A DNA stretch of 64,000 bases. Origin: an uncultured Leptospira sp. (lineage in GTDB: Bacteria > Spirochaetota > UBA4802 > UB4802). The position numbers and the translations under genes were made by a program. Within the stretch, counting starts at the first letter, position 1, and each line of letters begins with the position of its first letter. The notes beneath the pieces were generated by a model that did not search any database, had not been told where the DNA came from, and saw nothing but the letters and a program-made list of their open reading frames with translations. The DNA is taken from NCBI GenBank assembly GCA_964509195.1, contig CAZDWJ010000008.1:61190-125189 (forward strand), in the 5' to 3' direction. Positions 23,164 to 57,756 of the stretch are shown piece by piece.

Positions 23164-23529
23164 TTATTTTTTGTTTTTATTAAGGGCGATAGTTACTGCA
23201 TCATTAAACCACTGTATAAAAAAAGCCATTCCCTCAACATGAAGGTTGCCTGCTGCTGCCGCATAAAACGATGCTTCTTGAGTTCCATCTTTCAACACAT
23301 TGAATGCGGTTTTTGCATCTGAAAACACCAGCGCAGCATCATAGTGTGCAAGACGCCGCGTTGAAGAGACCACCCCTTTGTTGAAAATGAATGTGCGGCC
23401 TTTGTTGTTTTTTGTTTTTATTGCAATTTTAACATTTACTGTTCCAATGTAGCGCTTAAATGCATTATTGTATTTTGATGCAAATTTTAAGGCCAGTCCC
23501 AGTATGCGAAGTAAGAGAGCGAACCTCAT
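23164..23529 (-). CDS. small SCP2/sterol-carrier-like protein (tentative)
   Basis: 121 aa and first gene of the operon. The pattern KGRTFIFNKGVVSS...ALVFSDAKTAFNVL...NLHVEGMAFFIQWF resembles SCP2-type lipid-binding domains. This is a weak call made by eye. Confidence 0.35.
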   Translation of the reverse strand: MRFALLLRILGLALKFASKYNNAFKRYIGTVNVKIAIKTKNNKGRTFIFNKGVVSSTRRLAHYDAALVFSDAKTAFNVLKDGTQEASFYAAAAGNLHVEGMAFFIQWFNDAVTIALNKNKK

Positions 23530-23711
23530 TGTACTATCCTTTTATATTTTAAAAATGACAAATACACCTGCAAATGTATAATGAGTTTTGCTATTTTGTA
23601 AATTATTTTTTTTACATATGCTGAAAAAATATGCTTGCGATAAATGCATTTATAGTGTATTATATGTAGAATCTGGAAAAAGCATATAACGCACATAAGA
23701 GGTGATTGACC

Positions 23712-24059
23712 ATGCTTACTGTTTCGGTTAACCAGCTAGGAGATGTTGTAGTAATTGATATAGCAGGTGAGTTTGATATTGATGTAATACGGGATGTAGA
23801 GCAAGCATGGAGCCAGGCATTGAGCAAAAATCCAAAAGTAATAGGATTCAATTGCCTGGAATTAAAATTTATTGATTCATCAGCATTAGGCACTCTGGTT
23901 AAATTTATGAATAGTGCAACAAATAGAAAAATAACATTTACTCTTTTTAATATTTCACCACCAATTGCAACAATTTTTAAAACATCAAAACTGGATAAAT
24001 TTTTCTCAATTAATTCAAAAGAGGATTTTGAGAATAAATATCTTTCTATAAGCAAATAA
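23712..24059 (+). CDS. STAS domain anti-sigma-factor antagonist
   Basis: About 115 aa. It reads VVVIDIAGEFD...LKFIDSSALGTLV (conserved phosphorylatable Ser context). A GAGGTG SD lies 7 nt before the ATG at 23712. Confidence 0.8.
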   Translation: MLTVSVNQLGDVVVIDIAGEFDIDVIRDVEQAWSQALSKNPKVIGFNCLELKFIDSSALGTLVKFMNSATNRKITFTLFNISPPIATIFKTSKLDKFFSINSKEDFENKYLSISK

Positions 24060-24313
24060 CGGGAATGCAAATTAAGTAAAAAACTTGCAAAATAAACCTA
24101 CCATTTTAGAAATATCTTTGTATGACACAATTTTCATTTAGCGCTATTACTCCCGCTAAAGAGTCAGTCATTTTATGGATACATCAAAAACTGCTTTCAT
24201 TCTGACTTTTAAAATTAAAGAAAGCAATTTTTGCATTTATATGTGTCCATACGGGAACATTCTTAAAATTATTTTTTAGAAGTTCCATTATAATATAAAA
24301 TGGAGGATAGATA

Positions 24314-25510
24314 ATGGCAGACAATGATGTTGTAGTTGTATCGGCATGCAGAACACCAATTGGGAGTTTTGGACAATCGCTTAAGGATGTAAAAGCGTAT
24401 GAGCTTGCTGCACTGGTAATGAAAGAAGCATTACAGCGTGCAGGTATTGAAGGTAGTGCGCTGTCAGATGTTATCTTTGGTAATTGCTTAATGGGATCTG
24501 ATGAGGCTAATGTGGCACGCACTGCTGCATTAAAAGCTGGTATACCTGTAGAGGTGCCTGCAACATCGGTGCAGCGACAGTGTGCTTCAGGTATGACTGC
24601 AGTGGTATTTGGCTCTCAGCAGCTTATTGCAGGGGATTCTGATATTGTACTGGTTGGAGGCGTTGAGTCAATGTCAAATGCTCCCTATGTGTTATGGAAA
24701 GCACGATGGGGACTTCGGCTTACACATTCTGAACTTACCGATGCTATGTGGGAATTGCTCCATTCCGGAAGCGGGCTTTTAGGTGAGCCCTATATTATGG
24801 GACAGACTGCTGAAAATCTGGCGGAAAAATATACTATATCACGTGAAGAACAGGATCAGGTAGCGTATGAAAGCCATAAAAAGGCAGCTGCAGCTATTGA
24901 TTCAGGAAGATTTAAGGATGAGATAGTTCCTGTCCCCATACCGCAGAAAAAAGGGGAACCTAAACTATTTGAAAACGATGAACATGTACGCCGTGATGTA
25001 ACACTGGAGAGCCTGGCAGCATTAAAACCCGCCTTTAAAAAGAATGGCACGGTGACAGCAGGCAATGCATCAGGAATTAATGATGGCGCTGCTGCACTGG
25101 TACTTACCACAGCCAAACGCGCACAGGAGTTGGGAGTAAAACCGTTAGCGCGTATTGCTGCAAATGCTTTTGCAGGTGTAGAGCCACATCTTATGGGATA
25201 TGGCCCTGTACCGGCAGTGACAAAGCTTCTTAAAAAAACCGGAAAAAAATTAGATGACATAAACCTGATTGAACTCAATGAAGCATTTGCTGCGCAGTAT
25301 CTTGCCTGTGAGAAGGGATTAGGGCTTGACCGCAGCAAAGTGAATGTGAACGGTTCGGGCATTGCGCTGGGGCATCCTGTTGGATGTACCGGTGCACGAA
25401 TAATTGTTTCGCTCATATATGAACTAAAGAAGCGCAATGCTCAATGGGGGATTGCAACTTTGTGTGTTGGCGGAGGAATGGGCGGTGCAGTACTTGTAGA
25501 GAATATATAG
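24314..25510 (+). CDS. acetyl-CoA C-acetyltransferase (thiolase II)
   Basis: 398 aa. It has the active-site Cys in VQRQCASGM, then NVNGSGIALGHPVGCTGARI and CVGGGMGGA. Confidence 0.9.
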   Translation: MADNDVVVVSACRTPIGSFGQSLKDVKAYELAALVMKEALQRAGIEGSALSDVIFGNCLMGSDEANVARTAALKAGIPVEVPATSVQRQCASGMTAVVFGSQQLIAGDSDIVLVGGVESMSNAPYVLWKARWGLRLTHSELTDAMWELLHSGSGLLGEPYIMGQTAENLAEKYTISREEQDQVAYESHKKAAAAIDSGRFKDEIVPVPIPQKKGEPKLFENDEHVRRDVTLESLAALKPAFKKNGTVTAGNASGINDGAAALVLTTAKRAQELGVKPLARIAANAFAGVEPHLMGYGPVPAVTKLLKKTGKKLDDINLIELNEAFAAQYLACEKGLGLDRSKVNVNGSGIALGHPVGCTGARIIVSLIYELKKRNAQWGIATLCVGGGMGGAVLVENI

Positions 25511-25569
25511 TTTGCTCCTTATGCTAGATTTGCTAATAGTACCAAACTCTATTTAGCAAAGAGCAAAAC

Positions 25570-25608
25570 ATTCACAGGGTGGTTATACACCCTGTGAATG
25601 GTATTTTT
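25570..25608 (+). terminator. intrinsic terminator of the thiolase gene
   Basis: Perfect 12-bp stem ATTCACAGGGTG (25570..25581) / CACCCTGTGAAT (25588..25599), followed by GGTATTTTT. Confidence 0.8.
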
Positions 25609-25735
25609 CCGGCAATGATTGAGGGTAACTATCGCCAAAACTGCCATAAAAAACTGAAAATATATAAAAGAATGATACATTTTTTACTATCATAATCCCG
25701 TATAATCAAAACCATTTATGTAAAAGGATACTGTT

Positions 25736-27528: not shown

Positions 27529-29616
27529 TTACCGAACCTGCTTTATATTTTTGCCATCAAAGATATCTTTCCCTTGTGCTCTAAACGGGATTATATACCA
27601 TCTGCCTTTTTTATATTTTGCCAATTGAAGCAAAGCAGGGTTTGGTAAATCCTGTATAAAATTAGAACTGAATTCCAGTGATATGGCTACATCACTTTCA
27701 TCATGACGGTTGTACTGGCCATTCAATTTAAGTCGTATCTCAGGTGCATTAAATATAAATGAATTGATGGTGATGGCAGGACCGTTAAGATTAAAATTAC
27801 CATATATTTTTTGAAACTCTAAATTAGCTAGTTTATATTTTAAATCCTGAAGCCATACGCTAAGACCATTCTGTAAGCCAGTGTTAGCTAGTTTACCGTT
27901 TTCTACTGAAACCTCAATCTTTCCGTTTATTCTATCAATAATAGGATCTTTTGGTTCGATAGTTACCTGTAATTGGCCTGATACATTACCAAAAAGGCGA
28001 TTTTCATACTCTTTAAGATACGCACTGATATTCTGCAATCGTAAGTTATTATATTTAGCAACAAGTGTTATTTGCGGATTATCTTGTGAGAGTGTGATAA
28101 CACTTCTACCGGTGACATCTCCTCCAAAAACTCTGGCCGTAAATGATGGTAGCGCAATAATATTTTTTGACATTGTGTAATTGCAGTTAACTTTTTCTAT
28201 CACAAGCTGATCTTTATACAATTTTTGCAAAACCAGTTTGCCCGATAGTTCATAAGGGATGTTTATTTCTTTTTTTGATTTTGCAGGTTGTTCAGGTTTT
28301 TTGGTAAGTATTTTATCCAGGTCAACTTCATCTGCTTCAATGTTTATGGTAAACTTTTTTAGCGAAGAATCTACTGTTGATACTGATATGACACAGGGCA
28401 CAGAATATACTGTTACCTGTATGCCATCTTTCTGGAACTGGTTGTTTTTGACAATAAGGCTTGTTTCCTTTAAAGCTATAATAGCATCTTTTTGGCCTAT
28501 AGAAATATTTGATAGCGTTACATCGGCATCAATTACGTTATTTTTATATTCAAAATTTCCATTTATTTCGCCTGAAATATCGCTTACATCAATATTGCCA
28601 AGTAGTGGAGCTATCTCTCTGATTCTAATTGATGCGTCATTGACTTTGATATTTTTAATATCACCATCAAAGTTAAATAATAACTGGTTTACAACAAAGG
28701 TTGAATTTTCTATTTTTCCTTTTGCGTTGGCGATTGTTACTGTTTCTTTGTTGATATTCACGGTACAGAATAGATTGCTTACAAAAAGCATAGAATTGTT
28801 GCTAAGCTTGCAGCTCCCTGTTACAGTTCCCTGAACACTGTTTTTTGTTATCACCAGATTATGTATTGTTCCTGTGAATATGCGGTAGGGCAGTATGCTT
28901 TCAAGATTATTGCCCCAGCGATATACCCATATAAGGTCACAGTTGTGTAACGATACATTGCCATGAATGCTATAGTCTTTTGAAGTTTTAATTAAGCAAT
29001 CACCAGAGATTTTTCCTCTGTTTTGTGGAAGTATGATCGACAGGTTTTTCAATTCTATATCGTCATCATTCAGCTCTACATTGGTATCTATACTGTATGT
29101 GCCTTCCAGTGGCTCGAGTTCTTTTGGTGGGTTTTGCAGGATGACTGTTGTATTATTAAATAATAGTGATTTGATCTCAGTGGTTATAGTAGATTTTTCA
29201 GCTGATAATAGTTCTTTGATAAGCTTTTCAAGGTTAGATGTTGTAAGTTTGTTTTCAGTATAATAAAGTATATTGATAACAGCATCATTGAGTGAGATAT
29301 AATTGATAATAAATTGTTTTTGCAATAAAGGTGCAAGCTGAAACCTGATTGCGGCATCTTTTGAATGTGCAATAAATGGCTTATTTTCGTCTGTGTCAAA
29401 AATATATAATTCAGTTAATTGGACACCTTTAATACTGTAATCTATTGCTCCTATTTTTACAGGCCTATGTAAAGCATCCTGCAAGGTTTGCACAATTATA
29501 GATTTCAATGTTTCTTTTGGGAAGAAATAGGTAAACGCTGCTGCAAAGGCAACAATCAGTAAGATAACAATAGAAAGAACTATCGCACTGTATTTAACTA
29601 CTCTTGCTGGCTTCAC
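27529..29616 (-). CDS. AsmA family outer-membrane biogenesis protein
   Basis: 695 aa. It has an N-terminal TM anchor and a long beta-rich repetitive body. The position and size fit the AsmA/TamB-like family. Confidence 0.65.
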   Translation of the reverse strand: MKPARVVKYSAIVLSIVILLIVAFAAAFTYFFPKETLKSIIVQTLQDALHRPVKIGAIDYSIKGVQLTELYIFDTDENKPFIAHSKDAAIRFQLAPLLQKQFIINYISLNDAVINILYYTENKLTTSNLEKLIKELLSAEKSTITTEIKSLLFNNTTVILQNPPKELEPLEGTYSIDTNVELNDDDIELKNLSIILPQNRGKISGDCLIKTSKDYSIHGNVSLHNCDLIWVYRWGNNLESILPYRIFTGTIHNLVITKNSVQGTVTGSCKLSNNSMLFVSNLFCTVNINKETVTIANAKGKIENSTFVVNQLLFNFDGDIKNIKVNDASIRIREIAPLLGNIDVSDISGEINGNFEYKNNVIDADVTLSNISIGQKDAIIALKETSLIVKNNQFQKDGIQVTVYSVPCVISVSTVDSSLKKFTINIEADEVDLDKILTKKPEQPAKSKKEINIPYELSGKLVLQKLYKDQLVIEKVNCNYTMSKNIIALPSFTARVFGGDVTGRSVITLSQDNPQITLVAKYNNLRLQNISAYLKEYENRLFGNVSGQLQVTIEPKDPIIDRINGKIEVSVENGKLANTGLQNGLSVWLQDLKYKLANLEFQKIYGNFNLNGPAITINSFIFNAPEIRLKLNGQYNRHDESDVAISLEFSSNFIQDLPNPALLQLAKYKKGRWYIIPFRAQGKDIFDGKNIKQVR

Positions 29617-33240: not shown

Positions 33241-33381
33241 AACAAACGCTAGTAATCAATCTCCGTATCAATTATATTTTATACACCACTGACATTCTAA
33301 AACTAGATAAAGAATTTGCACATGCTGTCATTGTAAACATTATTTAAGATGAGTTGTGCCATAAATGTCCTTTTTACCTTT

Positions 33382-33468
33382 TAACTATCGCTCATAATAA
33401 TTATAATATACAAATAATATATGCAATGCAATAGAATTATGAAAAAAATATTTTTTAAGCGATAGTTA
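33382..33468. repeat. inverted pair of the dispersed GCGATAG motif (11-bp arms, 65-bp AT-rich spacer)
   Basis: TAACTATCGCT (33382..33392) and AGCGATAGTTA (33458..33468) are exact reverse complements. A third variant copy, CTATCGT, at 33493..33499 overlaps the glgX stop. Confidence 0.85.
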
Positions 33469-33498
33469 CTGTTAAAAATACCTTCTATTACACTATCG

Positions 33499-35646
33499 TC
33501 ATACGTGAGCAGAAATCAAAACTACAGATGACATTTTTTTAGTTAAATAGCTTTCCTGGGAAGGGATTGACGTACCTTGTAGTATTATATCATCAGGTGT
33601 ATGCAGTGAGGTATCGACCACACGTAGCCATTGACTACCGTTAAATGGCTTTGGTAGTGAAAATGCGAGGTCATATTCAGATGCGTTGAATATCATATAT
33701 ATATCATTATCGGGAGTACCGTATTGAAGCTTAGCATATGCACCGTTAAGATGCAATGCAATAGAATGGCTGTAATATCCAAGATCAGGGGCATGGCAGT
33801 TAACACCGTGCCACACGCAATCAGGGTGTGTAAACCCTTGCTGGGCAGTGCCTGATAAAAAGTGCTTTTGCCGTAGTACTGGATGCATTTTGCGAAATTG
33901 AATCAAACACCGCACAAATCTATGTATATCATCAAATTGCTGCATCCTGTCCCAGTTTATCCAGGATATTTCGTTATCCTGGCAGTAGGCGTTGTTGTTA
34001 CCATTTTGAGTTCTACCCATCTCATCTCCTGCAAGCATCATGGGTACACCCTGAGACAAAAACAGTGTAGTAAAAAAATTTTTTATCTGCTGTCTTCTGA
34101 TTGTAAGTATTTCAGGCGGAGCATCATGACCTTCAACGCCGTAGTTACAACTCAAGTTATTGTTGTCCCCGTCTTGATTATTTTCACCATTAGCAAGATT
34201 GTGTTTTTCATTAAATGAAACTAAATCCAGCATAGTAAAGCCATCGTGGCAGGTGATAAAATTAATGCTGTGCAGTGGACTTCTGTTGGTTTTTTGGTAA
34301 ATATCAGGGCTGCCAATAATGCGCTGCATAAAGTTGACAACGGTATCATTATCGCCACGCCAGAAATGACGGACATCGTCACGGAATTTGCCATTCCATT
34401 CGGCCCACCGTCCGGGGAAATGGCCTATTAAGTACGCTCCGCCAGCATCCCAGGCTTCGGCAATAATTTTAGTGTTGCGCAAGATGGGGTCTTCGGATAT
34501 TTTTTCGATAAGTGGTGGATTTTGCAAAATATTTCCATCCTGATCCCTTCCAAGTATTGAAGCCAGATCAAATCTAAATCCATCAACATGCATATCAACA
34601 ACCCAGTAGCGCAAGCAGTCTAAGATAAAATCACGTACCAGTGGATTATTGCAGTTAACTGTGTTACCGCAGCCGGAAAAATTTTGATAAAATCGTTTGT
34701 TCTCTTTCAGCATGTAGTATATAGAATTATCAAAACCTTTAAAACTTATTGTGGGACCCAGATGGTCACCCTCAGCGGTATGATTGAATACAACGTCTAA
34801 AAACACCTCAATGCCAGCTTCATGAAAATCACGGATCATTTCCTTGAATTCATTAATCTGCTGACCCATTGTGCCACTTGATGAATATGTTGATTTTGGT
34901 GCAAAGAACGCAATGGTGCTGTAGCCCCAGTAGTTTTTGAGTCGCTCACCGGTAAACGGGTTCACATTAACATTTTCAAATTCATCAAATTCCTGAATGG
35001 GCATAAGTTCAACGGCAGTAATTCCCAATTCTTTCAAATAGGGTATCTTTTCGGTTAAGCCTTTAAAGGTACCTCTGTGCTTGACATTTGATGATGGATG
35101 ATAGGTAAACCCTTTTACATGAAGTTCGTAGATGATGGTATCTTCCATTGGAGTTTGAATGGGACGATCGTACCAATCAAATTCAGTGTCTACAACAATA
35201 CATTTGGGTGATTCTTTATAGTTTTTATCTGTAGAAAACGAAAGGTCCTCATCCGGGTGCCCCTTAATGTATCCACAGGCTTTGCTGAAATCCCATATAT
35301 GATTGCCACTGATAGCTTTAGCATAGGGGTCAAGCAACAGCTTATTTTTATTAAAACGATGCCCCTGATTAGGCTGATATGGTCCGTCAACTTTATAGCC
35401 ATAAAGCTGTCCTTCACGAATACCAGCAATCCAGATATGCCAGACATCACCTGTTTTATTGAGTTTGGGATCTAATTCAATTTCAATATATTCTTCAGTT
35501 TCTGATGAAGAAAATAGCAGGATTGAAACAGCTGTGGCATGACGGCTGAATAGCGCAAACCGTGCACCATGCCTGTCTAAATGAACACCTAATGGCAGGG
35601 GAGTCCCCGGCAACGTAACAAAATGATGTTGTTTAATGGGATGCAT
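33499..35646 (-). CDS. glgX: glycogen debranching enzyme (GH13)
   Basis: 715 aa. It has the GH13 catalytic regions VDGFRFDLAS, IAEAWD and FITCHDGFT, plus an N-terminal CBM48-like region. Confidence 0.9.
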   Translation of the reverse strand: MHPIKQHHFVTLPGTPLPLGVHLDRHGARFALFSRHATAVSILLFSSSETEEYIEIELDPKLNKTGDVWHIWIAGIREGQLYGYKVDGPYQPNQGHRFNKNKLLLDPYAKAISGNHIWDFSKACGYIKGHPDEDLSFSTDKNYKESPKCIVVDTEFDWYDRPIQTPMEDTIIYELHVKGFTYHPSSNVKHRGTFKGLTEKIPYLKELGITAVELMPIQEFDEFENVNVNPFTGERLKNYWGYSTIAFFAPKSTYSSSGTMGQQINEFKEMIRDFHEAGIEVFLDVVFNHTAEGDHLGPTISFKGFDNSIYYMLKENKRFYQNFSGCGNTVNCNNPLVRDFILDCLRYWVVDMHVDGFRFDLASILGRDQDGNILQNPPLIEKISEDPILRNTKIIAEAWDAGGAYLIGHFPGRWAEWNGKFRDDVRHFWRGDNDTVVNFMQRIIGSPDIYQKTNRSPLHSINFITCHDGFTMLDLVSFNEKHNLANGENNQDGDNNNLSCNYGVEGHDAPPEILTIRRQQIKNFFTTLFLSQGVPMMLAGDEMGRTQNGNNNAYCQDNEISWINWDRMQQFDDIHRFVRCLIQFRKMHPVLRQKHFLSGTAQQGFTHPDCVWHGVNCHAPDLGYYSHSIALHLNGAYAKLQYGTPDNDIYMIFNASEYDLAFSLPKPFNGSQWLRVVDTSLHTPDDIILQGTSIPSQESYLTKKMSSVVLISAHV

Positions 35647-36125
35647 GTTTAAATAAATATGATTAGCTTTGTTGTGTAAATAGTTACAGCATACAAATAT
35701 GGATGTATGCGCATAACAGTCAATGCAAATTTTTCTTAAACAGTGGTATGTTTATAGCTTATTGTGAAACAGTCCAATACCTTTGGAAAACAAAGATATA
35801 AAAATGCTATAGTAATGGAAGCTAAAAGTGGGGATAAAATGCGCAATGTAAACCATAGCGGTAAAAAAAAGATCAATGTATTTTAAGTTGGTTTATGCTC
35901 TGCAATATTAAAAAATGATATATGGTGTTTCAGTAAAGTGTTAGTTAATACGTTAGATTTAAGGGAACTTGAGTAAATGCATTTATAAAGAAGTACTCAT
36001 GTCATCCACCAATACACTGTGAAGATATTGCTTTAAAAAAAATTTAAAAAAATTCATTGACAAATCTAGTATATATAATAACATCAGACCATATGATAAT
36101 CTGATTTTTTTTGTGGACAAAAACC

Positions 36126-37121
36126 ATGATTAAAATTGCTGAATTGCTTCCCCCGCGCCCTTCTGCATTGTGGACCATGGTAAAGCAATGTGGAATAGAG
36201 TATGTTGTTGGCGGTATGCAGCATTACGCTGGCTGGGAAAATATGCCAAAGGACTTCTGGCCATGGAGCTATAATTCACTGGTTCATATTAAGACCAATT
36301 ATGAAAACGGAGGATTTACGCTTGGAGTCATTGAATCCCGACCTCCAATGGAAAAAATAAAATTAGGCCTGCCGGGAAGGGATGAAGAAATTGAAAATGT
36401 CATAATGCTTATACAGAACATGGGGAAACTGGGCATTCCCGTATGGTGTTATGAATGGATGCCCGTGTTTGGTTGGACAAGGACTTCAACAACAACGCCC
36501 ATCCGCGGGGGTGCAATGGCTACCTCTTATGATCATGCACTAATGGAAAAGGCTCCAATGACTGAGTACGGAATTGTAACCGAAGAAACATTATGGAAAA
36601 ATCTACAGTATTTTCTAAACGCCGTTATCCCTGAAGCAGAAAAAGCAGGTGTAAAATTAGCCATGCATCCAGATGATCCACCCATTTCTCCTATTCGCGG
36701 TGTTGCGCGTATTATGCGCTCGGTTGAACATTTTCAAAAGTTACTGGATCTTTATCCAAGTGAGTTTAATGGCATTGCATTGTGTCAGGGTAATTTTGCA
36801 TTGATGACGGATGATCTTCCTGCTGTAATCAGAAAATTTGGAAAACAGGGTAAAATCTTTTTTGTCCATTTCAGGAATGTAAAGGGAACCGCACACAAAT
36901 TTACTGAAACATTTCATGACGATGGGATGATTGATATGTACGAATGCATGAAGGCATACTATGAGATTGGCTATGAGGGACTGATGCGTCCTGATCATGT
37001 TCCCACTATGGAAGGCGATAGCAATGATAATCCTGCCTATTCCTCAATTGGTAGGCTTTTTGCCATTGGGTACATAAAGGGCCTGGCGGAAGCAGTTGAA
37101 AAAAATCAATGCGGAAGGTGA
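36126..37121 (+). CDS. uxuA: mannonate dehydratase
   Basis: About 331 aa. It has MHPDDPP, FVHFRNVKG and MRPDHVPTMEGD, characteristic of the short UxuA form. The track start at 36111 is TTG. Confidence 0.85.
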   Translation: MIKIAELLPPRPSALWTMVKQCGIEYVVGGMQHYAGWENMPKDFWPWSYNSLVHIKTNYENGGFTLGVIESRPPMEKIKLGLPGRDEEIENVIMLIQNMGKLGIPVWCYEWMPVFGWTRTSTTTPIRGGAMATSYDHALMEKAPMTEYGIVTEETLWKNLQYFLNAVIPEAEKAGVKLAMHPDDPPISPIRGVARIMRSVEHFQKLLDLYPSEFNGIALCQGNFALMTDDLPAVIRKFGKQGKIFFVHFRNVKGTAHKFTETFHDDGMIDMYECMKAYYEIGYEGLMRPDHVPTMEGDSNDNPAYSSIGRLFAIGYIKGLAEAVEKNQCGR

Positions 37122-42560: not shown

Positions 42561-43262
42561 ATGAACATTTTTTTTATATTAATTGGACAGGCAACCGTTG
42601 TTATTAACGTAAATGGGATAGTCTTTATGACCGATCCCTGGTGGGGCTCTTTTGAATTTTTGCGTGCAGTCCCATTGTCAATAAATCCAGAGGAAATATC
42701 ACCTCTGCATTATATGCTAGTTTCACATAATCACATTGATCATTGGTGTGAGAGTGCCATCAAACTGGCAAAAGAAAAGGATTGCATGGTTATAGGGTCA
42801 ACAAAATCGGTAAAACGTGCCCGTAAAAAGAGTGTTAAACAATGTAAGGCTCTGACCCCGGGCGATAGTGTTGATTGCAATGGTGTTATGGTGTATGCGG
42901 TTCCAGGATTTCATCCATTTGCAAAGGATGCAATAGGCTTTATCATACAAAAAGGTAATATTACACTGTATTTTTCGGGGGATACGCTGTACACTGAAAA
43001 TTTACTCAAGGCTCTGACCCCATACTCAGTAACTATCGCCATGATACAGGTTGCCTGTTCCACCTACCCACTGGTGGGTAAAGACGGGATGGATTTGGAG
43101 GCGGCATCACGCTTTGTTGCAGATGTAAAACCTGGGATTGTAATACCCATACACTATCAGATAAAGGGAAAGTACCTCACTTACGCGCAGTTACAAAACT
43201 GGAACGTTGATGCACAAAAAATTATTTTGCCCCATGGGAAGGAGTTTCATTTGCAAATATAA
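42561..43262 (+). CDS. MBL-fold metallo-hydrolase
   Basis: 233 aa. It has the SHNHIDH (HxHxDH) motif and a later GFHPF/GD. Confidence 0.75.
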   Translation: MNIFFILIGQATVVINVNGIVFMTDPWWGSFEFLRAVPLSINPEEISPLHYMLVSHNHIDHWCESAIKLAKEKDCMVIGSTKSVKRARKKSVKQCKALTPGDSVDCNGVMVYAVPGFHPFAKDAIGFIIQKGNITLYFSGDTLYTENLLKALTPYSVTIAMIQVACSTYPLVGKDGMDLEAASRFVADVKPGIVIPIHYQIKGKYLTYAQLQNWNVDAQKIILPHGKEFHLQI

Positions 43263-45891: not shown

Positions 45892-45903
45892 GTGGGGGGG
45901 GTT

Positions 45904-46814
45904 ATGGTATCAAAAAAAAGAAGATACATCATAGCTCTTGTAATCGCAGCATGCATTGTACTGGTGGTAATCTGTAAACCAGTTGATAAAGGAAAACCAT
46001 ATAATGATTACTTTGCTTCACTAAATAAAGAATTAAAAACAAGTGGGATTGCATTACCGTGTATCATAATAGATCTTGACTGAGTAGACCATAATATACA
46101 TCAAATGAACAGTTTACTGAAAGCTCCACTTAATTATCGTATAGTAACAAAATCACTGCCTTCCATAGAGTTGCTGGATTATGTGATGAAAAAAAACCAG
46201 CACTAATAAGCTCATGGAATTTCATCAACCATATCTGTCGCTTATAGTAAAAAAGTATGGTTATAACCTGGATATTCTTTTGGGTAAGCCGTTTCCCATA
46301 CAAAGCGTACAAAAATTTTATAATGATTTTCCAAAGAGTGACTATCAGCAGTTATTTGGTGAATGATATTGCAGCAGGCTCATGTGTGGTTAAACCATCT
46401 ACTTTTGATTTTTTTACTCTTGATACACATATTCCAGCACTATTTATTGCAGCTCCAATTTTGAAAAAAATTAATAGCTATGAGGTGCCATTTCTTGAAC
46501 TGTTTAACTGACTGATAGAGTGATGGGATCCAAACTGCAGGCAAACATATTATACGTATGGTGGTGGGTGGAACGAACTTATAGATTCTCCTGAAGGTGT
46601 TTTTGTAAATGCACTGACTGCAAGCCCTCCCAACGAAAATTTGCTTCCCAATCAGAGTATGCTGAATGGGTCATCGTCAACAAAACTTGAAGTGGGGGAT
46701 TTTGTCTTTTATAGGCCAAAACAGGGGGATGCGTTATTTCATTTCTGAGATATTATCGTTATTAGGAATGGTAAAATCATTGCATCGTGGAAACCATTTC
46801 CTGAAAGATTTTAA
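45904..46814 (+). pseudogene. decayed PLP-dependent alanine-racemase-fold (DSD1/D-threonine-aldolase-like) gene
   Basis: The N-terminal piece reads MVSKKRRYIIALVIAACIVLVV...LPCIIIDLD, then an in-frame TGA at 46081. Homology continues across several frames (VDHNIHQMNSLLKAPLNYRIVTKSLPSIELLDYVMKK; LMEFHQPYLSLIVKKYGYNLDILLGKPFPIQSVQKFYNDF; GDFVFYRPKQGDALFHF; GKIIASWKPFPERF*), with multiple stops and frameshifts. The family call is tentative. The disrupted state is clear. Confidence 0.6.
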
Positions 46815-47005
46815 TTTTACAATATCTTTACAGGGTCTTCATAATTTCTTTATAATTATGAGATTTGTTACAGTTAATAGTTAATTCCTATCAGTTATTG
46901 GAATACATTTTTTCAATTTCATATCTGTTGTAGTGGTATTGCTTTTAGCAGCAGCATTGGAAAGTGTATTAAAGGAATTTATAAAACAAATAATAGTAAA
47001 TTGCT

Positions 47006-49508: not shown

Positions 49509-51242
49509 TTACTTATGTGGTATTATAATTGTAAATGTAGAACCATTTGATGAAGAAGTTACTCCAATTGACCAACCTAATATAAGTGCTGCATGTTTCA
49601 CAATTGAAAGGCCAAGTCCTGTACCGCCAGTTTCGCGTGAACGACTTTTATCCACGCGGTAGAAACGCTCAAAGATCCTATTAATTTCATCATGAGGGAT
49701 TCCTATGCCAGTATCAGTGATATATATTGTGAGCAATTGAGGGTTTGAAGTAGCTGTGATAGTGATTGAACCGTGCTCATTGTTGTAATTAATGGCATTG
49801 TCAATTATATTGAAGAATATCTCTTCAGCTAAAAATGCATTCCCCAAAATATTTTCAGGCAGGGATTCAATGTCCATAACTATCGCCAGGTTCTTTTTAT
49901 GAATTTTTGGCATTAGCAGATCAACACACTGTGAAATGACTTTTTTAAGATTAACAGATTCGCTGGTGATGTAGGACGATGTTTCTAATTGATTGAGTTT
50001 AAGCATATCGTTGATGATAGCATTCTGGCGTTCAACATTGGCCAGGGCACTTTCAATAAAATTCTCAGCTGTTTTCTGGTCGCAAATATTGTCTTTAATT
50101 GTTTCTAAATATCCGCGGATGATACTGATAGGTGTTTTTAATTCATGTGAAAGATTGCCCACAAGATCCGATTTGAGTTGCTGTATGCGCTTTTGTTCCG
50201 TGACATCATGCATCAGTAGCAGGGTGCCCGTAGCAGGTTCAGCAAACGGATAGATAAATATCTGAAAATGATTCCCAGCTATTGTTTCTTCAAACGATAT
50301 CCTCTGCTTCTGAGAAAAGGCAACATGTATTTTTGCGTTCAACTCGCTGTGGCGGATGACCGTGAAATAATATTTGTTGGTAATGCTTTCAGGGTACTCA
50401 AAGCAGTGAGCAAATGCTTTATTGTGAATAGTAATTTTTTTATCTTCATCGATTAGTGCAATGGGGTCATGGATGCTTTCAATAATCATGAAAAGTTTGT
50501 TCTTTTCATTGGTAAGTTCGTTGATGCGCTGCTGTATGTTATCTGCCAGCTGATTCATGGCTTTTTGCAAATATCCCATTTCATCATCTTTGTAATTGAG
50601 AATACGTGCACCAAGATCACCATTGAAAAACCTGTGTATGAACTGCAATGAATCCTTGATTGGTTTTGTGAAAGCAGTGGCAAACAGTGCAGTAACTATA
50701 ACACTTATCACCAATACAACAATACCAACAGCAAGAATATTTTTAGTGATGGATTCAATCAATGCGTTAATAGTATTCAATGATTTAGCTGTGCGGATAT
50801 AGTAATAATTGTAATATGAGGCAACATATAGCATATCGGCATTCATTGTAGTACTGTATCGTACAGACATACCGGTGCCCTTTTTTCGTGCTTCCAGGAT
50901 TTCAGGGCGGTATAAGTGGTTTTCCATTAAATCAGGATTGGCATCTGAATCAAAAATGACGGTACCATCATTCTGTATGATAGTAATGCGCAAAGAACTT
51001 TTCTGAGCAACATTTTTTAACGCAGTTGCTATCTCATTGTTAAAAAACATTTTGCTCACTGGTTTGTGAAATGAAAGGAGGTAGGTGTTTATATATTCAA
51101 TATTTTGCTGCAATTCAACTTTTAAAAATATTCTGAATTCATTCTGTATATGGCGTTGAATGTATAATAAAAGAAGCGAAATAAAAAGGATTAATGCTAT
51201 AGAATAAACAATGATTAATTTTGATTTAAGGCTCTGTATCAT
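49509..51242 (-). CDS. phoR: phosphate regulon sensor histidine kinase
   Basis: 577 aa. It has two TM segments, HAMP and PAS domains, the H-box LSHELKTPISII, and N/G boxes IIDNAINYN, DTGIGIP and GGTGLGLSIVK. It follows phoB. Confidence 0.85.
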   Translation of the reverse strand: MIQSLKSKLIIVYSIALILFISLLLLYIQRHIQNEFRIFLKVELQQNIEYINTYLLSFHKPVSKMFFNNEIATALKNVAQKSSLRITIIQNDGTVIFDSDANPDLMENHLYRPEILEARKKGTGMSVRYSTTMNADMLYVASYYNYYYIRTAKSLNTINALIESITKNILAVGIVVLVISVIVTALFATAFTKPIKDSLQFIHRFFNGDLGARILNYKDDEMGYLQKAMNQLADNIQQRINELTNEKNKLFMIIESIHDPIALIDEDKKITIHNKAFAHCFEYPESITNKYYFTVIRHSELNAKIHVAFSQKQRISFEETIAGNHFQIFIYPFAEPATGTLLLMHDVTEQKRIQQLKSDLVGNLSHELKTPISIIRGYLETIKDNICDQKTAENFIESALANVERQNAIINDMLKLNQLETSSYITSESVNLKKVISQCVDLLMPKIHKKNLAIVMDIESLPENILGNAFLAEEIFFNIIDNAINYNNEHGSITITATSNPQLLTIYITDTGIGIPHDEINRIFERFYRVDKSRSRETGGTGLGLSIVKHAALILGWSIGVTSSSNGSTFTIIIPHK

Positions 51243-51249: not shown

Positions 51250-51930
51250 TTACCCTTTTAACCCGTAGCCAACGCCAGAATACGTCTTGATGGCTTCCTT
51301 ATAATGCCCTAACTTTTTCCTTAAATTCATAATATGCACGTCAACCGTTCTGTCAATTACATATACATTATCTCCGCGAATACTGTCGATGATGTTATCA
51401 CGGGAAAATATTTTGCCAGGGTATTGCATGAAGAGTTTAAGAATAAGAAATTCGGTTTTTGTTAAATCAACGGGTTCTTTGTCGATAGTTACTGAAAATT
51501 TTTCTGGATACAGTGCAATGCCTTTATATGTTAGGACTTCTTTCGGTGTTTCTTCTTTGCCATGGACACGCCGCAAGATTGCTTTCACACGGGCAATGAG
51601 TTCGTGTATGCTAAATGGTTTGGTGATGTAGTCATCAGCTCCCAATTCAAGCCCTAACACTTTATCAAGCTCTGCTGATTTTGCTGACAGGAATAAAATG
51701 GGGATTTCTTTTAAATTGCTGGATGCCCGGATCTGCTTACACAGATCCAATCCATCCATACCGCTCATCATGATGTCAAGAATTAAAAGATCAGGTTTGG
51801 CGATAGCTAACTGTTTTAAAACCTCTTCAGCTGAAGCAAATGTAAAAACATCATACCCATTTTTTTGAAGATTGACTTTCAGGATCTCGCGAATATCCTT
51901 TTCATCATCAACAACATATATTTTTGGCAT
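51250..51930 (-). CDS. phoB: OmpR-family phosphate regulon response regulator
   Basis: 226 aa. It has a receiver domain (DLLILDIMMSGMDG) and a winged-helix domain (LTKTEFLILKLF...GVGYGL). Confidence 0.85.
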   Translation of the reverse strand: MPKIYVVDDEKDIREILKVNLQKNGYDVFTFASAEEVLKQLAIAKPDLLILDIMMSGMDGLDLCKQIRASSNLKEIPILFLSAKSAELDKVLGLELGADDYITKPFSIHELIARVKAILRRVHGKEETPKEVLTYKGIALYPEKFSVTIDKEPVDLTKTEFLILKLFMQYPGKIFSRDNIIDSIRGDNVYVIDRTVDVHIMNLRKKLGHYKEAIKTYSGVGYGLKG

Positions 51931-53641: not shown

Positions 53642-54472
53642 ATGAAGGTCAAGAGTTTTTCAGTTTTTTTAATGATAATGGCGTTAATAAGCTCATTATC
53701 AATTGGTTTTTCACAGACTAAAGGATCAAAAGTAGTTATTAAAGGTTCAACAACAGTATTGCCGATAGCTCAGAAAGCACTGGAAGCATTTTATGAAAAG
53801 ACAAAGATTGTCATAAGTCTTTCGGGCACCGGTTCAGGCGATGGGATTAAATCACTTATTGATGGCAGCTGTGACATCGCAAATTCTTCAAGAGAAATGA
53901 AACCTGAAGAATTAAGTCTGGCAAAATCTAAGGGTGAAAAGATTAAAGAAGTTGCTATCGCGTATGATATGATAGTCCCAGTCGTGCATCCTTCAAATCC
54001 AGTAAAAAATCTTTCCATGGCTCAGCTGAAAGCTATTTATGAAGGCGCTATCACCAACTGGAGCCAGGTAGGTGGCAATAATGAAAGGATAGTAGTAATA
54101 TCTCGCGACTCAAGTTCCGGTACATTTGAAGTATGGGAAACCAAAGTTATGAAGAAAGCGGAGGTCCGTAAGGATGCGTTATTACAGGCATCTAATGGTG
54201 CAATAGTATCAGTTGTTTCAAAGAATAAAAGAGCCATTGGATATATAGGTTTTGGATATCTTGATGACAGGGTAAAAGCATTAACAGTTAATAATGTTGA
54301 ACCAACAATCCCTAATGGCAAATCAGGTGTATATCCTATAGCCCGTAAATTGTATATGTATGTTAATGAAGTGAAAATCAAACCAGAAGCCCAGCAATTT
54401 ATAGATTTTATCCTTTCAAAAGAAGGACAGCAGATTGTGAAAGCAGCAGGTTTTATACCACTCACTGATTAA
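53642..54472 (+). CDS. pstS: phosphate ABC transporter substrate-binding protein (copy 1)
   Basis: 276 aa. It has a signal peptide without a Cys lipobox and reads IKGSTTVLPIAQK...SGTGSGDGIK...SSREM...ISRDSSSGT. AGGAGG SD. Confidence 0.9.
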   Translation: MKVKSFSVFLMIMALISSLSIGFSQTKGSKVVIKGSTTVLPIAQKALEAFYEKTKIVISLSGTGSGDGIKSLIDGSCDIANSSREMKPEELSLAKSKGEKIKEVAIAYDMIVPVVHPSNPVKNLSMAQLKAIYEGAITNWSQVGGNNERIVVISRDSSSGTFEVWETKVMKKAEVRKDALLQASNGAIVSVVSKNKRAIGYIGFGYLDDRVKALTVNNVEPTIPNGKSGVYPIARKLYMYVNEVKIKPEAQQFIDFILSKEGQQIVKAAGFIPLTD

Positions 54473-54497
54473 TGTACATACAAAATATTGATTTATA

Positions 54498-54525
54498 AAA
54501 CGCTACAGCAATGTAGCGTTTTTTG
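54498..54525 (+). terminator. intrinsic terminator after pstS copy 1
   Basis: AAACGCTACA-GCAA-TGTAGCGTT followed by TTTTTT. Confidence 0.75.
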
Positions 54526-54624
54526 TTAAAAAAGTGTTGCAAAAGATTGGAATGACTGATAGATTAAAAAAGGAACGGGGCTAAGGGCTAGGTAAATAAT
54601 TTAATTCTCTATGGAGGGTACAAC

Positions 54625-55452
54625 ATGAAAATAAAAAGTATCATATTTTTTATATTGATATTTGTTATCGCAATAGTACTGAGCATGTCGTGTTCAAAAG
54701 AAGCTAAGGAGAAAATTGTTATAAAAGGGTCAACTACGGTGTTGCCCATTACCCAAAAAGCTGCGGAAGCTTTTTATGAAAAAAATAAAATTGTCATTTC
54801 TCTTTCAGGTACTGGCTCAGGTGACGGGATTAAGTCTTTAATTAATGGTAGCTGTGATATTGCCAATTCTTCACGGGAGATGCATCCAGAAGAATTAGAC
54901 CTGGCAAAACGTAAAGGTGAAGTAATAAAAGAAGTGGCAATTGCGTTTGATATGATAGTTCCTATTGTGCATCCTTCAAACCCTGTTTCAAATCTCACGT
55001 TGCATCAGTTAAAAGCAATATATGAAGGGTCAGTCAAAAACTGGAAGGATGTTGGTGGAAAAGATGAAGCTATCGTTGTCATTTCACGCGATTCAAGTTC
55101 GGGCACATTTGAAGTGTGGGAATCTAAAGTAATGAAACATGGTGAAGTGCGTAAAGACGCACTACTGCAGGCTTCTAACGGAGCTATCGTGCAGACTGTA
55201 TCACAAAACCTTAAAGCAATAGGTTATGTGGGTTACGGATATCTGAATGACAGAGTGAAGCCATTATTTGTAAATAATGTTGAACCAACAATTGACAATG
55301 GAAAAAGTGGCAAATATCCTATAGCTCGCAAACTCTATATGTATGTGAATGAAGTAAAAATAAAGCCAGCCGCACAAGCATTCATAGATTTCATGCTATC
55401 TGATGAAGGTCAGGCGATAGTGAAAGAGGCGGGCTTTATTCCGGTTAAATAG
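54625..55452 (+). CDS. pstS: phosphate ABC transporter substrate-binding lipoprotein (copy 2)
   Basis: 275 aa. It is about four-fifths identical to copy 1 by eye, but has the lipobox LSMSC. Confidence 0.9.
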   Translation: MKIKSIIFFILIFVIAIVLSMSCSKEAKEKIVIKGSTTVLPITQKAAEAFYEKNKIVISLSGTGSGDGIKSLINGSCDIANSSREMHPEELDLAKRKGEVIKEVAIAFDMIVPIVHPSNPVSNLTLHQLKAIYEGSVKNWKDVGGKDEAIVVISRDSSSGTFEVWESKVMKHGEVRKDALLQASNGAIVQTVSQNLKAIGYVGYGYLNDRVKPLFVNNVEPTIDNGKSGKYPIARKLYMYVNEVKIKPAAQAFIDFMLSDEGQAIVKEAGFIPVK

Positions 55453-55814
55453 TATCGTGTCGTTTTTATACGGTATTGTTATAGTTTAAATAATTAAACT
55501 CAGTCCATAATTTTTGGGAAAATTTAAAAAATGATAACTCAATATTTTCTATGATTAAAAAATAATAATATATGGTGTAAAACCACCAGATTAAGGAATG
55601 GTATATGAGCAGTTTATAATAAGAGGTAATTTATGATGAACGATCTATTGCCATATTTGGGGGTTGCGTTATTAAAACAGTATAAGAAAGGAACGTTCTT
55701 CTATTTTCAAAATTTTCAAATAGGACAAATTACATTCAATTATAAAAGAATATTTCTGTTACAGCCAAAGTATTTCTAAATATTCCTACTCTAGCTACTT
55801 TTGATTTTAGCATT

Positions 55815-56360
55815 ATGGAATTTGAAAAATTTATTTTTAGTTTACCAGATACACCTAGTTTTATTCATCTAAAAAATTTTTATGAAAGTTATTATAATAA
55901 TAGTTCTGATAAAACAATTGTTGTTCCCGTTTTAGACCACAATCTAATTGATATAGATAACTGTATAGCTGGCTATCTTTGGGAGGAAGAAGTTGATGGA
56001 AATGGGCTAGTTTTTGTACCATTTAAATCATTTGAATTAGTTAAGAATTATATACCCTCTTTTATTGAAAAAGGAGAACAACCTTTAAACGTAATAGCTT
56101 TTGACTTTTTACTATGTGCTATATCAGAAAATAAAAATATACCAGCAATGCAACCATATTTAAAAGCTATGTTACATATGAATGATATTGAAGAAGATTA
56201 TTATTATGATAGTGGGGTGAGTATAGTTATATATTTTTTAGATGCAATAAAGGTATGGAGATCTAAAAATATTAAACCATTAAGAGATGAACTAAAGATG
56301 AAATTGAAAAGATATGAAAGAGGAATGCAAAAATGGAATGAAACACAAAACGAAAAATGA
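55815..56360 (+). CDS. hypothetical protein (orphan, AT-rich codon usage)
   Basis: 181-aa ORF with no motif I recognise. Both the gene and its 360-bp upstream spacer are visibly more AT-rich than their neighbours. Confidence 0.45.
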   Translation: MEFEKFIFSLPDTPSFIHLKNFYESYYNNSSDKTIVVPVLDHNLIDIDNCIAGYLWEEEVDGNGLVFVPFKSFELVKNYIPSFIEKGEQPLNVIAFDFLLCAISENKNIPAMQPYLKAMLHMNDIEEDYYYDSGVSIVIYFLDAIKVWRSKNIKPLRDELKMKLKRYERGMQKWNETQNEK

Positions 56361-56594
56361 AGCCGCATAATAAGCACGTCCATTAAAGTAGTTTTTAATA
56401 GAACACCATGCTTTATAGATGCTGTTATGACGTATTATACATATTTATGAGATACCAAAGGGGCTAAAGAGGGGTTATTAATAAATGCTCAATTTTGGTA
56501 AAAAATATCCAGAAGAGCAATTAATTGTGGAGTGTATCATTTTTAACAGGCAGTGTTATTTTCTATATTCAAATTGAATTTAGCTGAGGTAAGT

Positions 56595-57656
56595 ATGAAG
56601 TTGTGTACTATCAAAGCCGGGCAAAGAGCCTACAGTATAATTATAGATGAAGGATTACAAAAAGAAAGAATTAAATGTGTACTTGGTGCTGCAGGTGGGC
56701 CAAAGTGGCTTGTGTTGTATGGACTGGACAAGGCTATATATACACAGTTTTTAACAAAACGAAAAAGCCCCGTGCAATTAATTGGTTCTTCTATTGCAAC
56801 ATGGCGCTTTGCTGCACTGGCACAAAAGGATGGTGAAAGGGCAATAGATATTTTTAAAGAGCGGTATATGGCACAAAAATATTCGCTTAATCCTAACAGA
56901 GAAGAGATAACCGCTGAGACAGCGGCAATTCTGGAAACGTATTTACCCGACAGCAAGATACAAGAGATACTTACACATCCGGTACTTAGGCTTTGCATTA
57001 TTACTGCACGCGCAAAACATCTGCTACAGTATGAACACAAATATCCACTAATGGCAGGACTTGCTTTTACCGCACTTACCAATGCAGTGAGCAGAAAATT
57101 ATTGCAGATAGATTTTGACAGATTTATATTCTATGATAAAAGGGAGTTTCCCTCGTTTATCAGGTGGGATGACTTTAATACTCAGTACATTCCGCTTGAT
57201 GGCACAAACATAAAAAAAGCCATTATGGCTTCAGGTGCTATCCCACTTGTGATGAAAGGGGTGCCCTTTACATACAATGGGCATACTACAATGCTGCGTG
57301 ATGGTGGGCTTGTGGATTATCAGATGGATCTGCCGCTAACGCTGAATGGTGGTATTGCGCTGTATCCACATTACCGTGACAGCATTATATCGGGGTGGTT
57401 TGACAAAGCGTTACCGTACCGCAGGAGGCAACACAACCTGGAGGATATCTGTATTATTTCGCCTAATAAAGAAGCTATTTTCTCACTGCCGTATAAAAAG
57501 ATCCCTGACAGAAATGATTTTTATACATTTGCAGGCAATGATAAAGAACGCCTCTCGTTCTGGGAAAAGGCAGTTGAATTGGGTATACACATGGCAGAAG
57601 AATTTATGGAACTGGTGGACAGTGGAAAAATTAAAGACAGGGTTGTGTTATTGTAG
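56595..57656 (+). CDS. patatin-like phospholipase family protein
   Basis: About 353 aa. It has the Gly-rich oxyanion region VLGAAGGPKW, a nucleophile-elbow-like LIGSSIATW (GxSxA variant) and the catalytic Asp context LRDGGLVDY. A GAGGT SD precedes the ATG at 56595. Confidence 0.55.
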   Translation: MKLCTIKAGQRAYSIIIDEGLQKERIKCVLGAAGGPKWLVLYGLDKAIYTQFLTKRKSPVQLIGSSIATWRFAALAQKDGERAIDIFKERYMAQKYSLNPNREEITAETAAILETYLPDSKIQEILTHPVLRLCIITARAKHLLQYEHKYPLMAGLAFTALTNAVSRKLLQIDFDRFIFYDKREFPSFIRWDDFNTQYIPLDGTNIKKAIMASGAIPLVMKGVPFTYNGHTTMLRDGGLVDYQMDLPLTLNGGIALYPHYRDSIISGWFDKALPYRRRQHNLEDICIISPNKEAIFSLPYKKIPDRNDFYTFAGNDKERLSFWEKAVELGIHMAEEFMELVDSGKIKDRVVLL

Positions 57657-57756
57657 GGCGATAGTTACTGCATGAGGGATGCGAAGGGTAAAAAAATCAC
57701 ATTAACAATTAAAAAAATTAGTTGATTAAAAAAATACATAACACTGTAATTTTTTC

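Follow-up and report, generated by a model that had tools for sequence, protein, structure and literature searches.

To our knowledge, hyper-abundant and selectively maintained DNA words have been described in very few lineages, namely the uptake signal sequences (USS) of Pasteurellaceae, the DNA uptake sequences (DUS) of Neisseriaceae, HIP1 of cyanobacteria, and Chi, and each of these words has shed light on DNA uptake, recombination or chromosome organization. The USS has the core AAGTGCGGT in Haemophilus influenzae and is bordered by AT-rich flanks, and the DUS (GCCGTCTGAA and its dialects) is read by the minor pilin ComP. Both accumulate in unconstrained places and are over-represented in non-coding DNA and at the ends of genes, and a minority of their copies form inverted repeats in terminators. 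Neither shows an orientation bias, and the USS arises by point mutation (Bakkali 2007, PMC1939737). HIP1, the palindromic octamer GCGATCGC, has lately been tied to transformation efficiency (Kamoku and Nielsen, 2024 preprint). Here, we analyzed a stretch of 64,000 nucleotides (the window) from an uncultured Leptospira sp. (assembly GCA_964509195.1, contig CAZDWJ010000008.1, positions 61,190 to 125,189 of the forward strand), and found it densely and conservatively marked by a word with the core GCGATAG, which represents a clean new case of such a word in an uncultured spirochaete genus. The word matches the USS and DUS most closely and HIP1 next. Its combination of features is the same as that described for the uptake sequences of Pasteurellaceae and Neisseriaceae, and we therefore rank first, with a probability of about 0.3, the reading that it is a USS/DUS-like self-DNA tag of a candidate DNA-uptake or recombination pathway.

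The word shares with the USS a short asymmetric GC-rich core (in a genome of 38% GC), a weaker extended consensus and a T/A-rich flank, a density of about one per 1–2 kb in both orientations and in and out of genes, the use of tolerant frames and variable protein segments, a point-mutation origin, orthologous sharing among related species, and occasional inverted pairs in terminators. It differs from the USS in sequence and phylum, in having a core of 7–8 rather than 9 nt, in its lower fold-excess, and in the presence of a second conserved word in the same DNA. With the DUS, it shares a "dialect" at the genus or family level, the lack of an orientation bias, gene-end enrichment and inverted pairs serving as terminator stems; however, no ComP-type pilin or type IV pilus genes were seen in the window or the relatives' flanks examined, and the long form occurs once per 8 kb, whereas the DUS occurs about once per kb. 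HIP1 is the closest analogue by kind of evidence: its abundance also goes beyond codon usage, its sites are conserved above controls at orthologous positions in both coding and non-coding DNA, it has no link to peptide, RNA or promoter function, it is regularly spaced, and its first five bases are likewise GCGAT. In contrast to the asymmetric word described here, HIP1 is palindromic, has no copy in the window, and is phylum-wide rather than restricted to one genus.

The data comprise the 64 kb of the window together with roughly 100 kb from relatives, most of it syntenic, with genes taken as simple longest-open-reading-frame (ORF) calls. In an unbiased word census of the window, the GCGATAG family came out on top. 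The core is present in 37 copies, spanning positions 3679 to 61972, against 6.2 expected under a third-order Markov model, which corresponds to about one per 1.7 kb or 5.8 per 10 kb; under the same model, GGCGATAG has 23 copies against 1.4 expected, GGCGATAGTT nine in all against 0.13, and GTAACTATCG eight against 0.07. The form CGATAGTTAC occurs eight times exactly (0.07 expected) and 17 times when up to one mismatch is allowed (2.0±1.6 expected, the eight exact copies included). One-mismatch variants of the core number 141 against 125 expected, a small sample that is compatible with a halo of the size found in H. influenzae. For comparison, 1 Mb of unrelated viral contigs contains GCGATAG at a background density of about 1.07 per 10 kb, and most other loci contain it at 0–2 per 10 kb. 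The 37 aligned sites yield the consensus (T-rich) G GCGATAG [T/C][T/A][A/C] C T G, in which information is restricted to positions -1 to +12 and falls to background level beyond them; the fullest form of the word is T-rich-GGCGATAGTTACTG(C). A scan for GGCGATAGTTACTG across 2.9 million viral contigs returned single chance matches only and no word-carrying phage lineage. Literature searches retrieved unrelated primers only for the word itself, and nothing relevant on uptake or over-represented sequences in spirochaetes.

The long form had been picked out earlier by a sequence-only reading, which reported the 13-mer GCGATAGTTACTG at four positions, three near-copies, and an identity of 19 nt (AGGGCGATAGTTACTGCAT) between two of the copies, one antisense to the last codons of an ORF and the other starting inside the stop codon of a second ORF. 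All of these copies and their coordinates are exact, and the 13-mer is beyond chance as it had estimated, being absent from 100 dinucleotide-preserving shuffles; its list was incomplete, and three further copies ((T)CGATAGTTAC, GCGATAGTTAA and GGCGATAGTTAT; Table 1) had been missed. The long form represents only the most extended members of a larger family that has GCGATAG as its core. The identity over 19 nt is accounted for by the extended consensus GGCGATAGTTACTGC(A/G), which is present in relatives too.

The excess does not come from the encoded proteins. When synonymous codons were shuffled within genes in 1000 trials, keeping the protein sequence and codon usage of each gene, 8.3±2.7 copies of GCGATAG were obtained against 32 observed in genes, 1.7±1.2 copies of GGCGATAG against 20, and 0.1 copies of CGATAGTTAC against five; none of the 1000 shuffles matched the observed counts. 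This persistence indicates an excess beyond both chance and codon usage. The cores inside genes (32 of the 37, or 86%) are divided into 17 sense and 15 antisense copies and occupy four of the six frames (12 in sense frame 0, ten in antisense frame 1, and five each in sense frame 1 and antisense frame 0), encoding A-I, x-I-A, G-D-S and L-S. One of the two unused frames would hold a stop codon, and the other (Y-R) is simply without copies. The word operates at the level of double-stranded DNA, independent of strand, transcription direction and reading frame, in line with the earlier claim that one DNA word is kept in coding and non-coding settings alike.

Several simpler origins were tried and rejected. 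A codon or peptide artefact is contradicted by the synonymous shuffles above. As for an RNA-level signal, an Rfam scan at gathering thresholds detected only a fluoride riboswitch elsewhere and nothing at the word sites, and the hairpin in the isoamylase spacer folds weakly (-7.4 kcal/mol, z = -0.56); such a signal was rejected also because sense and antisense copies are balanced. The fold of the spacer alignment is without covariation in the motif arms because these arms are invariant. The two identical 19-nt copies at first suggest copying, in which case the word would mark the end or the remains of a repeated or mobile element such as a miniature inverted-repeat transposable element (MITE), the end of an insertion sequence (IS), or a repetitive extragenic palindrome (REP). 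However, no pair of copies is alike past about 14 nt, the flanks are unrelated, no consistent hairpin is present, and orthologous sites in outgroups show substitutions instead of insertions. Unrelated flanks, together with information limited to -1..+12, identify a word and not an element. Like REP/BIME (bacterial interspersed mosaic elements) and MITEs, some copies lie at gene 3′ ends and in spacers, but they have no element body or conserved hairpin, and most are inside genes. Neither an IS or MITE context nor a lack of further copies, either of which the sequence-only reading had named as speaking against a recognition site, was found. Element ends, codon or peptide artefact, and chance are thus effectively excluded.

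The genes of the window are ordinary chromosomal housekeeping and metabolic genes (GlyS, ProRS, LeuCD, thiolase, acyl-CoA dehydrogenase, isoamylase and a Pst/PhoU/PhoR-type cluster). The closest genomes are metagenome-assembled genomes (MAGs) labelled Spirochaetota or Spirochaetia, one of them merely "uncultured bacterium", and several contig names suggest that they derive from engineered or digester-type samples. In these MAGs, the isoamylase is 83–91% identical, the DNA is 75–81% identical, and gene order is conserved; genus-level relatives overall share 75–86% nucleotide identity. The other end of the window is covered by metagenome contigs, and two metagenome contigs of 3.3 kb are identical to it. 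The word is enriched in most of the genus-level loci (L003, L004, L005, L013 and L084–L086), which contain 3–5.6 copies of GCGATAG per 10 kb and up to six copies of CGATAGTTAC per locus of about 20 kb. Genomes with the word include the MAGs CALEUQ01, JBBFLA01, JARYLT01 and DCUV01/UBA2205 and the JGI contigs Ga0101944_10000626 and Ga0067045_1031238; the closest lineages without it are represented by Ga0116188_1007927 and Ga0272443_10000015. Spirochaetes with protein identities of 83% or less (including about 60%) and unrelated bacteria showed no enrichment, and a search for a different word, or dialect, in 20–60 kb samples of more distant spirochaete loci gave nothing convincing. GCGATAG is a genus-specific, hyper-abundant DNA word. 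Its gain is so recent that close relatives are without it, which offers a natural comparison for finding the responsible gene by presence and absence.

Gain and loss at the genus level also fit mobile methylase genes. According to this alternative, which has been proposed for the origin of HIP1, a genus-specific DNA methyltransferase and biased repair would restore the word as a by-product, and the word would have no function of its own. A sharp asymmetric 7-nt core is typical of Type IIG, Type III and orphan methylase specificities. In locus L083, which is genus-level and of lower GC (0.34), the sequence orthologous to the site at 57658 has decayed, and the locus carries a different restriction-modification insertion, an N6/N4 DNA methylase and an MjaI-type restriction endonuclease adjoining the patatin-like gene (L083 155-2013). 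HIP1 itself has been linked to methylases of CGATCG and GATC (Elhai 2015, PMC4390886). On the other hand, the deamination variants are not depleted (GTGATAG, 13 against 9.2 expected; GCAATAG, 17 against 14.9), there is no methylase gene within the window, restriction-linked sites are normally avoided rather than enriched, and site conservation of the kind described below speaks for selection instead of neutral replenishment (Xu et al. 2018, PMC5861425). We regard the methylase origin as quite unlikely.

Comparison of orthologous loci, which follows the logic of Xu et al. (2018), shows that the sites are conserved well above controls of the same composition. In each relative, 50–58% of the core sites are identical against 16–23% of same-composition control 7-mers, and when all available relatives are taken together, identity is complete at 11 of 23 core sites and at 107 of 1104 controls (Fisher p = 5e-6). 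For the long form, the 10-mer is identical at all ten positions in 17 of 18 pairwise comparisons of alignable sites, and this identity holds in spacers whose flanks are diverged or carry indels. Nearly all sites of the relatives are common to the window, and over the same aligned region short-form sites are about twice as numerous in the window as in the relatives, which implies that sites are still being gained or lost. In LeuC, the site at 26387 arose by two synonymous changes (GCA ATT to GCG ATA) and is silent at the protein level; at other sites the outgroups have related non-motif sequence. These alignments show that the word was made by point substitutions in existing sequence, not by insertion of an element, and that it is held in place by selection or directional drive.

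Within the window, the sites are spaced more evenly than random (coefficient of variation (CV) 0.68 against 0.98, p = 0.005), and the largest gap without the word is 3.9 kb against 7.0 kb expected (p = 0.002). They are also close to stop codons, 15 of the 37 lying within 125 nt against 7.1 expected (p = 0.002), so that the emphasis of the sequence-only reading on gene 3′ ends describes a real, modest bias; near start codons there is no enrichment (eight sites against 7.6 expected). Pairs of sites within 45 nt are inverted in 13 cases and direct in five, and in two cases the inverted pair provides the stem for a hairpin of the terminator type right after a stop codon, namely that of the isoamylase, where it is kept in three relatives, and that of the acyl-CoA dehydrogenase in L086 and L083. 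The spacing, stop-proximity and inverted-pair tests rest on 13–37 events. Site density is 0.90 per kb in less conserved genes and 0.42 per kb in the others, which is a trend only (Spearman p = 0.14), and some sites fall in protein segments that vary in the outgroups (ProRS, 61083 and 61966; response regulator, 51483 and 51800).

The even spacing is among the points in favor of a nucleoid-associated or chromosome-organizing protein as the reader of the word. According to this alternative, as proposed for HIP1, an abundant and genus-specific protein would read GCGATAG(TTAC), and regular sites would structure or segregate the chromosome. The orientation- and frame-independence of the word, the clustering of three copies in one conserved spacer, and the strong conservation of individual sites all fit; such conservation is taken as a sign of selection on function, not of replenishment (Xu, Lawrence and Durand 2018, PMC5861425). 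The periodicity reported for HIP1 is on a scale of 10–90 kb, for which the 64-kb window is too short. However, nucleoid proteins usually tolerate degenerate sites and need no fixation of each of them, no candidate protein is known, and genus-level gain and loss, the stop-codon bias and the use in terminator stems are not predicted. This explanation is possible, although we consider it improbable on balance.

A global transcription factor, with the long form as its true operator and the short forms as chance or weak sites, could account for three of the eight exact 10-mers lying in spacers against about one expected, for the conserved spacer with three copies near a conserved TTGCATTGCA box, and for some palindromic arrangements (e.g., GATAGTATCTATC at 19912). 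It is hard to reconcile with the 32 cores and five 10-mers inside genes, which are equally conserved, with the lack of start-codon enrichment, with a word that is asymmetric and mostly solitary, and with a density far above that of a regulon. We therefore hold an operator to be very unlikely.

The strand distribution bears on recombination signals. The split is 21 plus to 16 minus, i.e., 57% on the G-rich strand, and a rough estimate from GC skew alone, from which replication direction was inferred, predicts about 56% for a word in which G exceeds C by two. Co-orientation of 75% with replication, as for Chi of Escherichia coli, is disfavored by this small sample (P(<=21 of 37) = 0.012), and the polarity of more than 80% toward dif that characterizes FtsK-orienting polar sequences (KOPS) and SpoIIIE recognition sequences (SRS) is not seen in the 21:16 split. 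A Chi-like signal would be read on single-stranded DNA by RecBCD or AddAB, switch degradation to RecA loading, and protect self DNA. In its favor, the word is a sharply defined, over-represented and lineage-specific 7–8-mer, GC-rich in an AT-rich genome and dispersed in the core genome once per 1.7–2.8 kb in coding and non-coding DNA with a 6- to 17-fold excess, and we know of no Chi sequence for Spirochaetota. Nevertheless, it has no replication skew past the GC skew, and neither its 14-nt extended consensus and T-rich flank nor its terminator-borne inverted pairs and the strong conservation of its individual sites are properties of Chi; the loss of the word across about 17% protein divergence is also faster than known Chi turnover. 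A Chi-like role is thus unlikely. The sequence-only reading had offered three functions for the word, of which an uptake signal fits best; its recombination option is disfavored in the strongly skewed Chi or KOPS form, and its nucleoid-protein option is only partly separated from uptake.

As a self-DNA tag, the word would be recognized in the manner of the USS and DUS: a pathway for DNA uptake or recombination would include a component that binds DNA sequence-specifically and reads the word, and fragments bearing it would be preferentially taken up and recombined. It would consequently spread wherever the code or a spacer tolerates it, such as variable protein segments, gene 3′ ends and terminator stems, remain fixed at orthologous sites in every species that has the receptor, and be absent from lineages without the receptor. 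The 7-nt core would be the obligatorily read part, and the TTACTG extension and the T-rich 5′ flank could provide auxiliary contacts. Among the features of uptake sequences, hyper-abundance, lack of orientation bias (in a small sample), sharing with close relatives at stable sites and point-mutation origin are all observed.

Several points weigh against the uptake tag. No ComEA, ComEC, DprA or pilus genes were found in the 64-kb window or in the relatives' flanks examined, and a search of the same DNA for competence, restriction-modification and recombination genes yielded nothing decisive. As far as we know, only two proteobacterial families take up DNA in a sequence-selective way, and Spirochaetota is a phylum for which natural competence has yet to be established. 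The core is just 7–8 nt long and its excess is below that of the USS or DUS; the second, unrelated word GGGGTCAGAGCC is also over-represented and conserved, which is unpredicted by a single-receptor model; and the near-perfect conservation of the long-form sites could equally fit a site-by-site cellular function. The coverage, about 64 kb plus about 100 kb from largely syntenic relatives, is narrow as well. Moreover, the USS and DUS are not especially evenly spaced or biased toward 3′ ends (Bakkali 2007, PMC1939737), so these two features do not point uniquely to uptake.

If the word is related to uptake, then natural competence and species-selective gene exchange would both exist in this phylum, for which neither is so far established. 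A bolder version, which we consider speculative and rather improbable, is that this is the first uptake-type self-recognition sequence outside Proteobacteria: the uncultured anaerobic-digester spirochaete genus would be naturally competent and prefer DNA carrying GGCGATAGTTACTG, its receptor would have no relation to ComP, and molecular drive would have spread the word during the most recent radiation at the genus level. In practical terms, the word could aid the transformation of these organisms and the binning of metagenome contigs.

Two genes in this region are worth recording. The single-stranded DNA-binding protein (SSB) encoded at 62304-62657 (-) is a short paralogue of 117 aa that lacks the acidic C-terminal tail and ends in ...AEEVVLNS; its size is that of the competence-type SsbB of Firmicutes, which is a weak, suggestive hint. 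Just past the right end of the window, L085 encodes at 11042-11377 (-) a protein of the YlbF/YmcA family (Pfam "control of competence regulator ComK"), a weak lead that does not constitute evidence of competence.

The individual copies, the state of their sites in related loci, and two other repeated words of the window are collected in Table 1. The two genes that the 19-nt copies lie in or overlap had been labelled in the sequence-only reading. No Pfam or NCBIfam match was obtained for the "SCP2-like" ORF even at E<=0.05, and the "patatin-like" ORF has a match, which is weak (E 9e-4) and under the Pfam cut-off.

Table 1. Copies of the GCGATAG word and other repeated sequences in the window (window coordinates; L numbers denote loci of related genomes)
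Feature	Position	Strand	Context	Related loci
Core GCGATAG (21 starts)	3679, 5788, 11939, 13561, 16047, 19910, 23186, 26387, 31132, 33459, 37015, 37908, 40236, 40386, 42862, 44560, 48703, 51800, 55414, 57658, 61966	+		
Core GCGATAG, CTATCGC on + (16 starts)	8120, 14753, 21615, 25629, 27002, 29580, 30298, 33385, 38536, 40333, 43033, 45019, 45313, 49880, 53955, 61083	-		
19-nt copy AGGGCGATAGTTACTGCAT (13-mer GCGATAGTTACTG at 23186-23198)	23183..23201	+	Antisense to last codons of hypothetical ORF 23164-23529 (-) (...AVTIALNK...); ~35 nt upstream of start of thiamine pyrophosphate (TPP)-enzyme gene 21496-23151 (-)	10-mer identical in L005, L013 despite differing 5′ flank
19-nt copy AGGGCGATAGTTACTGCAT (13-mer GCGATAGTTACTG at 57658-57670)	57655..57673	+	Overlaps TAG stop of ORF 56553-57656; 157 nt upstream of acyl-CoA dehydrogenase gene	Identical in L084, L085; decayed to TAGTGATATTGTTAATGCA in L083
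Long form GCGATAGTTACTG	33459..33471	+	Spacer just downstream of isoamylase (glgX-type) gene 33499-35646 (-)	GCGATAGTTAC invariant across L003, L004, L005, L013
Partial CGATAGT	33492..33498	-	Directly 3′ of isoamylase TGA stop; inverted pair with 33459-33471 (7-bp stem, then T-run on gene strand), terminator-like	Arrangement kept in L003, L004, L005
Copy GCGATAGTTAA	33381..33391	-	Third copy in isoamylase spacer, ~74 nt from 33459-33471 and inverted to it	Full GGGCGATAGTTACTG in L005, L013
Spacer after isoamylase	33378-33503	-	Three word copies, TTGCATTGCA box and AT-rich promoter-like sequence; upstream of 556-aa protein without family match	First ~130 nt highly conserved in five genomes; TTGCATTGCA box invariant
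Long form GCGATAGTTACTG	43027..43039	-	Antisense within metallo-beta-lactamase (MBL)-fold gene 42561-43262 (peptide SVTIAM); second word GGGGTCAGAGCC 5 nt off	Site identical in L003, L005
Copy GGCGATAGTTAC	25625..25636	-	Thiolase-leuC spacer, just past 13-bp hairpin terminator 25569-25600	Identical in L004, L005
Copy TCGATAGTTACTG	51482..51494	+	Antisense within OmpR-type response-regulator gene 51250-51930 (peptide SVTID)	TCAATAGCACCTG in outgroup L087 (peptide QVLID)
Copy CGATAGTTAC	27957..27966	+	Antisense within AsmA-family gene 27529-29616 (peptide QVTIE)	10/10 identical in L003, L004, L005; 9/10 in L013
Copy (T)CGATAGTTAC	7669..7678	-	Sense strand of Na+/H+ exchanger-family gene 7026-8249	
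Copy GGCGATAGTTAT	49876..49887	-	Within histidine-kinase gene 49509-51242	
Terminator hairpin CGGGGATG...CATCCCCG, then TTTTT	59530..59573	+	After acyl-CoA dehydrogenase stop; degenerate copy GCGGATAGTTAT in loop and stem	Stem is an inverted pair of the word (GGGGATGCGATAGTtatggACTATCtGCATCC) in L086, L083
Second word	16416-16425, 39759-39768, 41550-41559	+		
Second word	42848-42859, 43010-43021, 63194-63205	-		
CAAAATATTTTG/AAATATTTTG (examples)	5699, 8094, 9538, 43522, 44894, 49845, 51405, 62677, 62806			

The second word, GGGTCAGAGC, is present in six copies against 0.02 expected; three of them have the form GGGGTCAGAGCC, and five of the six are kept in genus-level relatives. Two copies lie in the MBL-fold gene 42561-43262, a few bases from GCGATAG, and both encode ALTP. 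As GGGGTCAGAGCC is both over-represented and conserved, GCGATAG may not be the only signal of this kind in the genome. The AT-rich palindrome CAAAATATTTTG (and AAATATTTTG) has 9–11 copies against 0.5–1.2 expected, several of them near gene 5′ ends or in the SSB/M18-peptidase spacer, and could represent an operator or promoter-associated element. A perfect 12-bp palindrome, TAAATGCATTTA, is found in two spacers (23641-23652 and 35974-35985), upstream of the gene 23660-24070 (-) and of a uxuA-type operon, and may be the operator of a local regulator.

Two structured elements are also present. A fluoride riboswitch (8298-8358 (-), Rfam RF01734, 43.8 bits) immediately precedes the Na+/H+ exchanger-family gene 7026-8249 (-), and a perfect 13-bp stem (CATTCACAGGGTG-loop-CACCCTGTGAATG, 25569-25600), T-rich on both sides, forms a bidirectional terminator after the thiolase gene, with a copy of the word 25 nt further on. 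ARAGORN called a 92-nt tRNA-Tyr at 36794-36885 (+) inside the UxuA-type gene 36111-37121, which is probably a false positive. A stretch of about 1.1 kb (45900-47000), which lies upstream of a pair of ABC permease genes, contains only short ORFs (84 and 73 aa) and falls in one of the longest gaps without the GCGATAG word; fragments similar to 46.4–46.8 kb are placed elsewhere in L004 and L005, and the region may be a decayed or rearranged solute-binding-protein gene. Finally, tandemly duplicated PstS-type phosphate-binding proteins (53642-54472 and 54625-55452) adjoin PstB, PhoU and a PhoR/PhoB-type two-component pair.

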